Positions 527 to 60,720 of a stretch of DNA of 64,000 bases are shown piece after piece (position 1 is the first letter of the stretch; the number at the start of each line of letters is the position of its first letter). The notes beneath the pieces are model-generated. The model saw only the letters and a list, made by a program, of their open reading frames with translations. It was not told the DNA's origin and searched no databases. Source of the stretch: Octopus vulgaris (lineage: Eukaryota); the NCBI GenBank assembly GCA_951406725.2, contig OX597815.1, positions 34,162,001 to 34,226,000 on the forward strand, read 5' to 3'. The translations under genes and the position numbers were made by a program.

Positions 527-768
527 CCACCTAAATGTGGCTGTCCCATATGGGACGACGCTACTGTTGTCACACGCTGATGAGGAGTTGGTACCAGAAA
601 CCCGGATCCGTGTGTATTACGTAAATCTAGAGATGAGAACGATGATTTCCCTTTGCAAATACTGATCGGGCACAGACAGTGTGTCGTTAACCAGCTGGAG
701 GAGATGCCTTCCTGGGGCTATAAACAACAGCAGCGTCGTCCCATATGGGTCAGCCATATTTAGGTGGC
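527..768 (+). mobile_element. Short fold-back cassette (~43 bp inverted repeats) enclosing a hammerhead-like motif; probable non-autonomous PLE derivative
   Basis: ccacctaaatgtggctgtcccatatgggacgacgctactgttgt (527-570) is the reverse complement of 724-768 with about 3 mismatches. Confidence 0.6.
571..614 (+). ncRNA. Minimal type-I hammerhead ribozyme-like motif (slightly degenerate)
   Basis: cacacg-CTGATGA-ggagttggtacca-GAAA-cccgga-TC-cgtgtg; 6 bp stem I (cacacg/cgtgtg), weak stems II and III. Confidence 0.55.
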
Positions 769-1162
769 AAATATACATATATATATATGTCTGTGTGTGT
801 GCGTGCATGCGTGTGTGTGTGTGTTTGTGTGTGTGTGTGTGTGCGTGTGTGCGCGTCCACCACTACTTCTTGACAATTAGTGTGGTGTGTTTAGGTCCCT
901 GTGGCTTAACAGTTCGGCAAAATAGAATGATAGAACAGGTGCCAGGTTTAAATAAGGAAAAAGTACTGGGGTCGACTAAAAATTCCGTGCCCCAGCATGG
1001 CCTCAGTCTAATGACTGAAAACAATTAAAAGATAAATATATATATATGTATATATGTTATCATACATAAACATTTATTGCGTCCCTCAAAACACATCCGA
1101 CGAACGCGCAGCCATACAGAAAAAAATACTCACATACGTACAACCATTAACTCACTCTCAGT

Positions 1163-1440
1163 ATCTATCTATCTATCTATATCTATCTATCTATCTATCT
1201 ATCTATCTATCTATCTATCTATCTATCTATCTATCTATCTATCTATCTGTCTGTCTGTCTGTCTGTCTGTCTGCCTGCCTGCCTGCCTGCCTGCCTGTCT
1301 GTCTGTCTGTCTGCCTGCCTGTCTGCCTGCCTGCCTGTCTGTCTGTCTGTCTGCCTGCCTGTCTGTCTGTCTCTCTGTCTGCCTGTCTGCCTGCCTGTCT
1401 GTCTGTCTGTCTCACTGTCTGTCAGTCTGTCTGACTGTCT
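1163..1440. repeat. Compound tetranucleotide microsatellite (TATC)n(TGTC)n(TGCC)n
   Basis: Directly visible. Confidence 0.95.
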
Positions 1441-1636
1441 GTTTCTCTTTCTCTCCACTCACACACAGACATATACATATACACACACAGACACAGACAC
1501 ATATATATATACATATATGTATGTATATATGTGTATATATATACATACACACACACACACATATATATATATATATATATATATATATATATATATATAT
1601 ATATATATATACCCTTATACATATATACCCTTATAC

Positions 1637-2048
1637 AGCGGGAGTGGCTGTGTGGTAAGTAGCTTGCTAATCAACCACATGGTTCCGGGTTCAGTCCCAC
1701 TGCGTGGCATCTTGGGCAAGTGCCTTCTGCTATAGCCTCGGGCCGACCAATGCCTTGTGAGTGGATTTGGTAGACGGAAACTGAAAGAAGCCTGTCGTAT
1801 ATATATATATATATATATATATATATATGTATGTGTGTGTGTGTGTGTGTCTGTGTTTGTCCCCCTAGCATTGCTTGACAACCGATGACTGATGTGTTTA
1901 CGTCCCCGTCACCTAGCGGTTCGGCAAAAAGAGACCGATAGAATAAGTACGGGGCTTACAAAGAATAAGTCCCGGAGTCGATTTGTTCGACTAAAGGCGG
2001 TGCTCCAGCATGGCCGCAGTCAAATGACTGAAACAAGTAAAAGAGTAA
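1637..2048 (+). mobile_element. tRNA-derived SINE, family A, near full length
   Basis: A-box-like tggctgtgtggt, B-box-like ggttcagtccc, CORE-like cttgggcaagtg, internal (TA)(TG) tract, tail ...gaaacaagtaaaagagtaaaa; many copies in window. Confidence 0.88.
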
Positions 2049-2483
2049 AAAAAAGAGAAAGAGTATGTATATGCACACACACAGTATATATATTAAATAA
2101 AGTTGCATGTCACAATCGATTCCTGCTGGCACATCCAAGCAATAACAATACGTCATGAGTGATTACCAATGTTATTCAACAGTCGCTTTCTTTCTGTCTG
2201 TCTGTCTGTCTGTCTGTCTGTCTGTCTCTCTCTCTCTCACACACACACACACTTTTCTTTCACTTTCTCTCTCTCTCTCCCTCTCTTTCTTACTCACTCA
2301 CTCGAAGTTTATCTCTTTTTCTTTCGCATGCATCTCATACTATCCCTTCTCTCTCTCTCTCTCTCTTCATCATCTGCCACTATGCCCCCTACCATCGTCC
2401 ATATATCCTCTACAGCTAATTTACTATCTTTGGTCAATAGGCTTGACTCAGTGTTTGTTGAATGCATCGATGACAATAAACTG

Positions 2484-3630
2484 CATCGTCATCATCACCC
2501 CCGCCGCCGTTGTCGTCGTCAGCAGCAGCATCATCATCATCATTAATGCTGTCATCATCTCATTATTCATCGTCGTCGTCGTCATTGTCATCATCTTCGT
2601 CATCATCAATGTCGTCATTATCAATGTTGTCACCATCATCATCATCGTCATCGTCATCACCATCATCATCATCACCGTCGTCATCATCATCATCATCATC
2701 ATCATCACCGTCGTCATCATCATCATCATCATCATCATCATCATCATCATCATCATCATCATCATCATCATCATCACCACCGTCATCATCATCATCATCG
2801 TCATCATCATCATCATCATCACCATCATCATCATCATCATCGTCATCGTCATCATCATCATCAACGTCATCATCATCGTCATCGTCATTATCAATGTCGA
2901 CATTATATCATCGTCTTCATCAACGTCATCAACGTCATCATCACCATCATGATCATCGTCATCCTTATCATCATCTTCGTCATCGTCGACGTCGTCGTCG
3001 TTTTCCTCCTCCTCTTCCTCCTCCGCCTCCTCCTTCCCTCCTTCTCTTCCTCCTCCTCATCATCATTACCATCATCGTCATCAACGTCGTAGTCTTTCTT
3101 CTCGTCGTCGCCGCTGTTATCAACCATCATCACTGACAACTTCACCCTCACCCTCACCAACTTCATTACCTTCATTATCATCATCATCATCATCATCATC
3201 ATCATCATCATCATCGACGTCATCGTCACTGACATAGTTATCTTCATCAACCAACACTACTACCCTGACACCTCCATCACCATTAACACTGCCATTATCC
3301 TCCTCTGCCTCCTCTTCCTCCGCCTCCTCTGCCTCCTCCTCTGCATCATCATCACCACCATTATCATCGTCATCGTCATCATCATCATCATCATCATCAT
3401 CATCGTCATCGTCATCATCATCATCATCTTCATCAACATCATCATCATCATCCTCATCGACGTCATCGTCACTGACATAGTTATCTTCATCAGTCAACAC
3501 TACTACCCTAATACCTCCATCACCATTAACACTGCCATTATTCTCCTCCTCCTCCGCATCATCATCACCACCATCATCATCATCATCATCATCATCATTA
3601 TCATTATTGTCATTATTATCATTATCTTCA
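2484..3630. repeat. Long compound (ATC)n/(CTC)n trinucleotide region with an internal ~250 bp tandem duplication
   Basis: catcgacgtcatcgtcactgacatagttatcttcatca occurs at ~3212 and ~3456. Confidence 0.9.
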
Positions 3631-58280: not shown

Positions 58281-58812
58281 TATATATATATATATATATA
58301 TATATATATATATATATATATATATATATATATATATATATATATATATATATATATATGTTAGGGAAGTTATTTCCGAGTCCACGAGGGAGAGAAGTTC
58401 AATTTAGTGGTACTAAAATGTATTACTCACATATATATAGATAGTAGGTTTAAGACACAGAATCACCCTCGAGCAACTCAATCATCATTGAAAGACATTA
58501 TCCACGATAAGACTAAATATTAAAATTATCAAAATTAATACCTTCAATTCTTATTTTAAATCATATACTTTACATTATATAGACTACGCACATTTCATGA
58601 CAACATATTCCTCGATATTGCTGAAATAGAAGGTCTCGAAATACAATATATAGCTTCAGGCGACCGACCCAAGCCTTGTGGGTGGTAGACGGAAACTGAA
58701 AGAAGCCCGTCGTATGTGTATATATATATATATATATATATATATATATATATATATATATATGTGTGTGTGTGTGTGTGTGTGTGTGTGTGTGTGTGTG
58801 TGTGTGTGTGTG

Positions 58813-59118
58813 TGGAGGCGCAATGGCCTAGTGGTTAGGGCAGCGGACTCGCGGTCGTAGGATCGCGGTTTCGATTCCCAGACCGGGCGTTGTGAGTGTT
58901 TATGAGCGAAAGCACCTAAAAGCTCCACGAGGCTCCGGCAGGGGGTGGTGGCGATCCTTGCTGTACTCTTTCGCCACAACTTTCTCTCACTCTTATGTTG
59001 GCCTGCTCGCTTAGCCAGCGGGGTGGCGTCATTTGAAGGCTAAAACAATGCGAAGCGCATTGTGACCAGCGATGTGTAACACCATCTGATGACCTGGTCG
59101 GTCACGGTGATCACGGTG
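58813..59118 (+). mobile_element. SINE family C, tail type 2
   Basis: Full head after (TG)n; tail ggtcacggtgatcacggtga then (TA)n. Confidence 0.9.
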
Positions 59119-59277
59119 ATATATATATATATATATATATATATATATATATAATAAAAAGTGTAAATAATTTTTCCGTGGTCTTTTAGACAACCAACAA
59201 TTATTTACAGGTAAATTTCGTTATGTAAATATGACTTTTAGCGTCAGGAACTTCTGTAGAGTTCAGTATATATAGTA

Positions 59278-59750
59278 AATATAATTAAAGGGGCAGGCAA
59301 CAGGTTGCTCTGCCGCATACCGAATGAATTAGAAATGGCAGTCAAAGACTGTTTATTTACATTTTCTACAAGTGGAGACTCCATATACGACATAACCCTG
59401 CGATTCACATACGCAAAATCGGAGTAGCAAATAAACGAAAACAATCTCTTACCGTTAATGGTGAACATGTTTCTAGATCGCAGGATCTAGAAACATGTTC
59501 ACCATTAACAATCTCTTACCGTTAATGGTGAACATGTTTCTAGATCGTACGATCTTGAAACATGTTCACCATTAACGGTAAGGTATTGTTTTCGTTTATT
59601 TGCTACTCCGATTTTGCGTATGTGAATCGCAGGGTTATGTCGTATATGGAGTCTCCACTTGTAGAAAATGGAAATAAACAGTCTTTGACTGCCATTTCTA
59701 ATTCCTTCGGTATGCGGCAGAGCAACCTGTTGCCTGCCCCTTTAATTATA
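59278..59750. repeat. Large near-perfect palindrome (~200 bp arms) with duplicated hairpin tip
   Basis: Mirror ORFs 59244-59468(-) and 59562-59819(+) share the same N-terminal peptide; two tips tctagatcgcaggatctaga and tctagatcgtacgatcttga. Confidence 0.95.
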
Positions 59751-59844
59751 TATATATATATATATATATATATATATATATATATATATATATATATATA
59801 TATGTATGTATATGTATGAATGTATGTTTTCTTTAAATGTATAT

Positions 59845-60720
59845 AACAAAACGAAACACCATCTCAAAATACTACCGTATATATCAACTCACAACCCTAG
59901 AAACAATGAGGCATACAGCCAGCACTATTGTACAAAATCTACCAATACTCACCAGGGGTTCAAAAATGAATAACATTCTGACAACACAAATTCATCAAAT
60001 GTAAAAAGCAATCCAAATCGCTGAAAAGTCTTCTGACAAATGCAGCCAGGAATTCAATGGTTAAAAAACGTGGACGTCCAAACTATGGAACATGGCACAA
60101 CGCACTTGAAGGCTCGGAATTCTAGTTAAAAAAAGGTGAGATGTTCACAATTAAGACCAACTTTACTTGTGCATCCGAAAATTTAACGTATATTATAACT
60201 TGTTCAGGTTGTGGATACAACTATGCAAGACAGACAAGCATGTCACTTAGACAGAGAACCACAACACATAAGGAACAGATCCGTTTCACAAAGTATAGAC
60301 AGATACATTTCAGTGAACGCATAGAGAGATGTGCTGGAAGTCTGCTACCAAATTTCAGTTTTCCCCATCTACCAGTGCAAAGAAACCGTTTCTGTACAAG
60401 AACGTTTAAATAAAGAAAATGTATTTATCAAAAAATACAGAACACGCCTAAATATGAACGCATAATCAACTTTTAACTCATGATCACATATCTAGCACTG
60501 CTTTAGCTTATGAGTTTTTGTATGTTTATCCCACCCCCAAAATGAGCAATTACCTTTCCTGTCCCGAGTAATAACTATCACCAATTACCTCCCCTTAGAT
60601 TTTTCTACTTGATTAATTCACAAACTTTCAGACAATAAAATACGAAATTACAACAATTTCAATGTCATGATTAGCGAAAGCGAAACCAGTCGACAACCAT
60701 AATACTCTTTCATTTAAAAT
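59845..60720 (+). mobile_element. Penelope-like element 3' remnant: GIY-YIG endonuclease pseudogene plus degenerate hammerhead (60663-60695)
   Basis: LPYISTHNPRN; FTCASENLTYIITCSGCGYNYARQTSMSLRQRTTTH; tgtc-aTGATtA-gc-gaaa-gc-GAAAC-ca-GTC-gaca. Confidence 0.8.

Follow-up and report, generated by a model that had tools for sequence, protein, structure and literature searches.

The window analyzed here is a 64,000-nucleotide (nt) stretch of the Octopus vulgaris genome (assembly GCA_951406725.2, contig OX597815.1, positions 34,162,001 to 34,226,000, forward strand), and our subject is the set of minimal hammerhead ribozymes (min-HHRs) that it carries and their relation to Penelope-like elements (PLEs). 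The DNA is AT-rich and dense in microsatellites, with 14,843 of its 64,000 bases masked. A sequence-only reading had claimed nine hammerheads: a hammerhead-like string does lie at all nine places, but their quality differs, with three intact, four damaged or variant and two weak. A tenth motif, absent from that list, lies at 34134 on the minus strand and is a decayed sister of the one at 16776. Motif starts vary slightly by listing (50502/50504, 57399/57398, 54562/54565 and 39192/39185 are the same sites). The motifs, their cassettes and the associated PLE features are as follows:

527..767 (+): cassette with 44-nt inverted arms (527-570 and 724-767, 93%), followed by (AT)n

571-614 (+): weak hammerhead beginning exactly at the left-arm end; 6-bp stem I, stem II no longer than 2 bp, 8-nt stem III that is nearly palindromic

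16776..16810 (+): intact min-HHR of the published PLE consensus, with an extra base after A9, G10.1-C11.1 and an ACGU stem III

34134..34168 (-): decayed min-HHR with G12A; alignment to 16776 at z 4.6 (0/200 shuffles)

35075..35110 (+): min-HHR with an A6U core, sister of 16776 (z 9.8, 0/200 shuffles); (TA)43 at 35187

39185..39245 (+): hammerhead with an exact core, a long two-part stem II and an ambiguous stem I/III register

44648..44927 (+): cassette with 70-nt inverted arms (100% identical), a 17-bp slippage repeat at the junction and a TA tract after it

44786-44831 (+): intact hammerhead with A.A at the stem II base and an 8-nt palindromic stem III

50128..51130 (-): non-coding cassette, bounds drawn by hand; tail-to-tail inverted 3'-end copy across a short TA tract (palindrome 50128-50365)

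50504-50615 (-): weak hammerhead with a 2-bp stem I and a stem II of ~90 nt

54546-54839 (-): CxxC-bearing frame upstream of the 54565 hammerhead, put forward as a candidate endonuclease

54565..54602 (-): hammerhead carrying A15.1G, with a single mismatch in stem II

57336..57571 (-): cassette whose inverted arms match at 77%, an 11-nt indel included, with TA-like flanks on both sides

57398-57445 (-): intact hammerhead with a 7-bp stem II, A.G at its base and an 8-nt palindromic stem III

59284..59746 (no strand assigned): palindrome of 463 bp (95%) that runs out in (TA)28 and has the 3' half of a hammerhead at its apex

59830..60462 (+): frameshifted 3' end of a Neptune-type PLE open reading frame (ORF), comprising the C-terminal region of the reverse transcriptase (RT), a decayed Cys linker and a GIY-YIG endonuclease region

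60663..60695 (+): hammerhead of the Neptune pseudo-long terminal repeat (pLTR), with an A3-U8 core, a 4-bp stem I, a 2-bp stem II with a GAAA loop and a near-palindromic stem III

The CUGANGA/GAAA/NUH core attributed to all nine is exact in six (571, 16776, 39192, 44786, 50502 and 57399) and altered in 35075 (A6U), 54562 (A15.1G) and 60663 (A3/U8, a compensatory pair). The intact motifs are those at 16776, 44786 and 57398; for the weak ones, 571 and 50504, the backing comes from context. Stem III is indeed palindromic or nearly so in most: exactly at 16776, 35075, 44786 and 57398 and in the tenth motif, within one change or wobble at 571, 50504, 54565 and 60663, and ambiguously in 39185. The motifs fall into group A (16776, 34134 and 35075), of the published min-HHR consensus type with pyrimidine-rich flanks; group B (571, 44786, 50504 and 57398), in which stem III is an 8-nt palindrome or nearly one and GAAA is preceded by a purine; group C (60663), behind the RT-linker-GIY-YIG remnant; and group D (39185 and 54565), each standing alone. 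At the stem II base, unrelated motifs with the 8-nt palindrome repeatedly show a purine.purine mismatch, either A.A or A.G (44797/44815, 57398-57445, 50504-50615); the tolerated mismatch known so far at this place is U.U (PMC3088659).

The proposed link to PLE pLTRs is supported by the 60663 hammerhead, which lies 205 nt past the Neptune-type GIY-YIG remnant, and by four other motifs with inverted copies of their 3' ends. The remnant at 59830-60462 matches protein P0001 at 67% identity by tblastn (E 2e-50; 70% in another search), a profile search gives E 1.6e-29, and P0001 carries RVT_1 and GIY-YIG matches, both below the Pfam curated cut-offs. In alignment A2 the residues C348/C353/C356, C381, C392, C395, H414 and H431 are invariant, and the window copy aligns there with its linker cysteines decayed. 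The remnant's closest named relatives come from Argonauta hians (51-53%) and from the bivalves Crassostrea, Saccostrea and Mytilus. A (TTA)n tract near 60745 marks the end of the element; homology and domain order place 59830-60745 with the Neptune-type PLEs, Nematis being a possible alternative. Among 63 related loci the ORF end could be mapped in 39, and 20 of these 39 have a sense-strand C3-G8 hammerhead 72-285 nt downstream (the weaker matches L016 and L042 were left out of this count, and the covariance model R1, described below, adds L032 and L022). Those 20 foreign hammerheads mostly have an ACCGGU stem III and a stem II of 2-5 bp, and seven have U.U at the stem II base.

The sequence-only reading had placed two motifs behind PLE endonuclease remnants. 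The one before 60663 was verified, but the one before 54562 matched nothing: the frame at 54546-54839 gave no Pfam match, no phmmer match against 1.84 billion representatives and no hit in a word search at E 10, and its best Atlas match (0.83) is unnamed. Its CxxC could be that which precedes a conserved E in the Hydra clade (PMC8557442), but to call it a Hydra-clade PLE would be a guess. With 120 Neptune-type proteins as queries, no homology to a PLE ORF was found in the window outside 59830-60462. Neptune-type ORFs were also seen inside bacterial genome bins (L001, L002 and L003; P0028 and P0030), where they are probably contamination from an animal host.

All four motifs with an 8-nt stem III carry inverted copies of their own 3' end, in the cassettes that begin at 527, 44648, 50128 and 57336. 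Short cassettes beside (TA)n had also been claimed, and this stands: a (TA)6 or longer tract lies at most 400 nt downstream of seven of the nine motifs, where the background rate is 0.20 (p 3e-4 in a binomial test, after trying three thresholds). The 16776 motif, for instance, sits between pyrimidine-rich flanks with (TA)14 at 16913. Apart from the related trio 16776/34134/35075, blastn comparisons revealed no similarity among the motifs, and the armed cassettes share no sequence with each other beyond one 14-nt match. The three unrelated armed cassettes at 527-767, 44648-44927 and 57336-57571 have near-equal spacers between their arms (154, 141 and 141 nt). At 18312-18428 and 18932-19047, 117-nt inverted arms (91%) enclose microsatellite DNA, and each arm holds a GAAA-palindrome-UH string with no CUGANGA; they are possibly DNA-transposon-like or another PLE fold-back element. 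At 38620-38875 (-) lies a TA-flanked cassette without a hammerhead core; on visual comparison its tail looks like the tails of 16776 and 34134.

The reality of the motifs was assessed against block dinucleotide shuffles with microsatellites held fixed (n=76), using descriptor tiers T1 to T5 that were written after the motifs had been seen. The strictest, T1, finds one real match against a shuffled mean of 0.04 (3/76 shuffles reach the count); T2, which allows one unpaired base on each side of stem II, finds three (16780, 44790 and 57441) against 0.04 (0/76); T3 finds four, the 39185 motif among them, against 0.68 (0/76); and T4 finds five against 2.0 (4/76). Because the tiers postdate sight of the motifs, two tests of other origin were added. 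The min-HHR consensus of Cervera and de la Pena (PMC4209133) has one strict match in the window (16780) and two with at most one core change (35079 in addition), and neither count is reached in 400 shuffles. R1, a covariance model built solely from 17 hammerheads of foreign Neptune loci, with rough E-values, ranks 44783 (E 0.0027), 54561 (E 0.0044), 60660 (E 0.076) and 39188 (E 0.12) as the top four of its 18 window matches and 570 as the seventh (E 1); its scan of the window left 16776, 35075, 50502 and 57399 unmatched. Tiers, published consensus and R1 (stem I/II pairing) taken together, seven of the nine motifs pass at least one. A scan of viral contigs with the 8-nt-palindrome pattern returned 120 matches by sequence alone, none of which has both stems or a PLE protein match, whereas both stems are present in 44790 and 57441. 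Other scans of viral contigs gave no match to the exact Neptune motif and eight to the A3-U8 pattern, none with stems of at least 3 bp.

Several results weigh against reading most of the motifs as PLE hammerheads. A verified ORF remnant accompanies only one of the ten, the sole motif to which a parent clade can thereby be assigned. The shuffle control, which strict descriptors exceed, is not exceeded by the loosest tier, T5 (11 real matches against 11.8 shuffled; 46/76). The motifs at 571 and 50504 pass neither a descriptor tier nor the published consensus, although 50502 could not have passed the tiers because its stem II exceeds their 40-nt limit. The proposed Rfam check came out negative, with no hammerhead match in the window at the gathering score; in E-value mode the best 150 of 315 rows hold no hammerhead and are nearly all microsatellite-driven miRNA matches. 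Covariation in alignment A3 (91% paired, score 0.76, 0/500 shuffles) is partly circular because its 17 rows were picked by a pairing descriptor, and the contig comparison given below covers a single family. Folding energies are uninformative (z +0.8 to -0.6 for nine of ten motifs, -1.96 for 57441). T5, Rfam and the near-zero folding z-scores are what would be expected if most of the nine were chance matches in AT-rich, repeat-dense DNA. We nevertheless hold this very improbable, as strict tiers, published consensus and R1 together pick seven of nine, and arms and TA tracts provide an independent context; chance is largely refuted for those seven and is possible for 571 and 50504. The extra loose-descriptor matches at 39095, 39482, 49034, 55068, 13453 and 8088 were dropped as noise, the loose tiers being at chance.

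Published PLE insertions are 5'-truncated, have an adjacent inverted copy and target microsatellites (PMC8557442). In the window the same three traits are found, with arms at 527, 44648, 50128 and 57336 and TA tracts at seven of nine motifs. Since inverted arms, TA tracts and ORF spacing fit known PLE insertions, we read most of the motifs, with a probability of roughly 0.8, as pLTR hammerheads of several unrelated PLE families, present as short 3' ends that have lost their 5' parts and are in the main decayed, and that lie mostly beside TA- or AT-rich microsatellites, which are likely their insertion targets. The sequence-only reading had spoken of many distinct non-autonomous families. Many distinct families are plausible, as the motifs mostly lack blastn similarity, but non-autonomous status is unsupported: the cassettes are the product expected from 5' truncation, and none is in a tandem array. 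True non-autonomous families with fixed ends, whether PLE-mobilized units like short interspersed elements (SINEs) or miniature inverted-repeat transposable elements, or solo retrozymes, would account for the like sizes of the three armed cassettes (235-280 bp; spacers 154, 141 and 141 nt) and for the 520 nt without ORF remnant upstream of 50613, and animal retrozymes are described as derived from pLTRs (bioRxiv 10.64898/2026.07.22.740005). We consider this improbable: the armed cassettes have only the 14-nt match in common, no motif lies within a 150-450-bp tandem array (among the best 150 of 159 Tandem Repeats Finder rows and in local direct repeats), and autonomous PLEs usually leave just such short 3' ends with inverted copies (PMC8557442).

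As a mechanism for these truncated PLE ends, drawn from the literature, the RT-GIY-YIG protein would nick AT-rich DNA on both strands and prime reverse transcription near the 3' end of its RNA; most copies would stop within a few hundred bases, and second-strand priming would yield the inverted arms. A PLE protein has been reported to cut and extend both strands of AT-rich DNA (PMC11167929). Uncut RNA would be the likely template because the copies include the CUGAUGA that lies upstream of the cut site; in the published system hammerhead cutting requires protein, the main template is RNA that has not been cut, and in vitro insertion does not need hammerhead cutting (PMC11167929). Through the short palindromic stem III, two transcripts, or pLTRs in tandem, are predicted to complete one another's structure and to be cleaved as dimers, a reaction that would probably be weak or protein-aided; cleavage through the palindrome is known with low activity in vitro (PMC4209133). 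Single genomic copies such as those here are probably inert.

The core of the Neptune motif reads AUGAUUA, with A at 60667 (position 3) and T at 60672 (position 8), which still pair but differ from C3-G8. Contigs from four runs under three organism codes were placed on 59830-60742 at 80% likeness, in numbers of 2164, 1515, 2390 and 160 per run, and their depth is at or near its maximum over 60636-60697, the hammerhead. The Neptune family is high-copy, and its hammerhead segment is conserved more than the flanks. A neighboring private change at 60654 stands at 98-99% in all four runs, and no difference row falls in 60655-60699 among the 40 of 438 rows listed, despite peak depth there. Since 60654 is listed and nothing in 60655-60699 is, C3/G8 is probably not near-universal in the family. 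Listed rows have a share of at least 0.94 in at least one run (eight recomputed, the others by eye), and as high-depth bins show few rows, we gave the lack of rows in 60655-60699 a weight of only 2- to 5-fold.

We therefore regard A3-U8 as rather likely to be a family-level trait. Two chance mutations of one dead copy would suit a copy that is frameshifted, carries several percent of private changes and has a stem III one change off its palindrome, and would suit the absence of A3-U8 from all 63 foreign Neptune loci and the small fraction of difference rows listed. This is the less likely course: the two changes, each a transversion, together re-form the 3-8 pair, an outcome that decay would produce in 1-2 of 10,000 cases by a rough hand estimate, and the pattern around 60654 also speaks against it. 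The natural 3-8 covariant in print is U3-A8 (PMC3088659; PMC4209133). We found no report of a natural A3-U8 core in the literature searched, and earlier core-variant work may already cover it. On the question whether PLE hammerheads must cut, fixation of a compensatory A3-U8 pair throughout a family would supply evidence from nature that the catalytic geometry is selected; such fixation, if true, would mean that the 3-8 catalytic pair is under selection within a PLE, so that cleavage matters in vivo. Standard CUGANGA descriptors would then miss every copy.

The palindrome at 59284-59746 presents at its apex a stem II hairpin followed directly by GAAA, a palindromic ACAUGU and U17, with ~185 nt to (TA)28. 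The CUGANGA half is missing there, and the reverse complement of the 3' half stands in its place; a 67-bp tandem repeat duplicates the apex in copies that differ at a few bases. Because such half motifs, real ones included, number 20 per 128,000 nt, chance alone would seldom put one at an apex (about 1/100 over six junctions, by hand estimate). The simplest reading of this single case is that in the course of one insertion nascent complementary DNA (cDNA) folded onto itself at stem II and served as its own template. No paper on a stem II cDNA snap-back turned up in the literature searched, judged by title. If true, the stem II apex would offer an explanation, open to testing, for some of the inverted structures of PLE insertions that have so far lacked one. 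That octopods have a high-copy Neptune family combining a functional natural A3-U8 core with a stem II acting as a cDNA snap-back site, giving long TA-flanked palindromes, is a tentative proposal that we think may well fail.

The window holds numerous other repeats, many of which we take to be SINE-like. Decayed RT remnants of the long interspersed element (LINE) type lie at 5961-6942, 25049-26290, 26490-27164, 28243-29763 and 61172-61720, with a zf-RVT match at 6373-6939 and two similar LINE-type copies at 26654 and 61210. A mariner-type transposase fragment occupies 61736-62053 (+; Pfam Transposase_1, E 6e-8). A 169-bp tandem repeat at 11181-11854 (3.9 copies, 96% matches) has no hammerhead core, and a direct duplication at 24013-24965 has a 513-bp period and 98.4% identity over 441 nt.

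PLEs make up 6.83% of O. vulgaris in 190 families according to a published supplement, which predicts ~4.4 kb per 64 kb; with cassette bounds drawn by hand we count ~5 kb here, and the hammerhead and PLE density of the window is not unusual for the species. The main text of the paper giving this figure mentions neither ribozymes nor hammerheads. Thousands of heterogeneous, mostly single min-HHRs per genome have already been reported (PMC4209133), so that many diverse minimal hammerheads in one animal genome are known and expected. No paper on octopus hammerheads was found by title among those listed, and the word Octopus is absent from the searched supplement PDF of PMC4209133.

Set beside known systems, the cassettes resemble non-LTR retrozymes (PMC7229834; bioRxiv 10.64898/2026.07.22.740005) in being short, non-coding and equipped with a type I hammerhead, and in their proposed origin from PLE pLTRs. 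Those form 150-450-bp tandem repeats, however, and because none of our motifs is in such an array among the TRF rows covered, the cassettes are not retrozymes as PMC7229834 defines them. With PLE min-HHRs (PMC4209133) they have in common CUGANGA-H, G10.1-C11.1, a palindromic stem III and a U-rich 5' flank, the motifs at 16776, 35075 and 34134 fitting the printed consensus; in both cases the copies are mostly single, heterogeneous, tied to truncated PLEs and in the thousands per genome. They differ in that none of the 56 rows of its Fig. S3 has A3 (two have U3-A8 and one U3.G8) and in the recurrent purine.purine pair at the stem II base, for which one 'AGAAA' entry may be a precedent. Among natural core variants (Perreault 2011, PMC3088659), the text cited names neither A3-U8 nor A.A or A.G at 10.1/11.1. 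It does have 3-8 covariation in the form of U3-A8, a 2-bp stem II and the U10.1.U11.1 mismatch, the last also seen in seven foreign loci. The window copy departs from the Neptune clade in being a frameshifted 3' fragment of 0.9 kb whose linker cysteines have decayed and whose core has A3-U8 where 20 foreign loci have C3-G8, yet like other C-terminal EN+ PLEs (PMC8557442) it joins an RT, a CX2-5CxxC linker and a GIY-YIG domain with Cys/His residues to a hammerhead ~200 nt downstream, beside a microsatellite.

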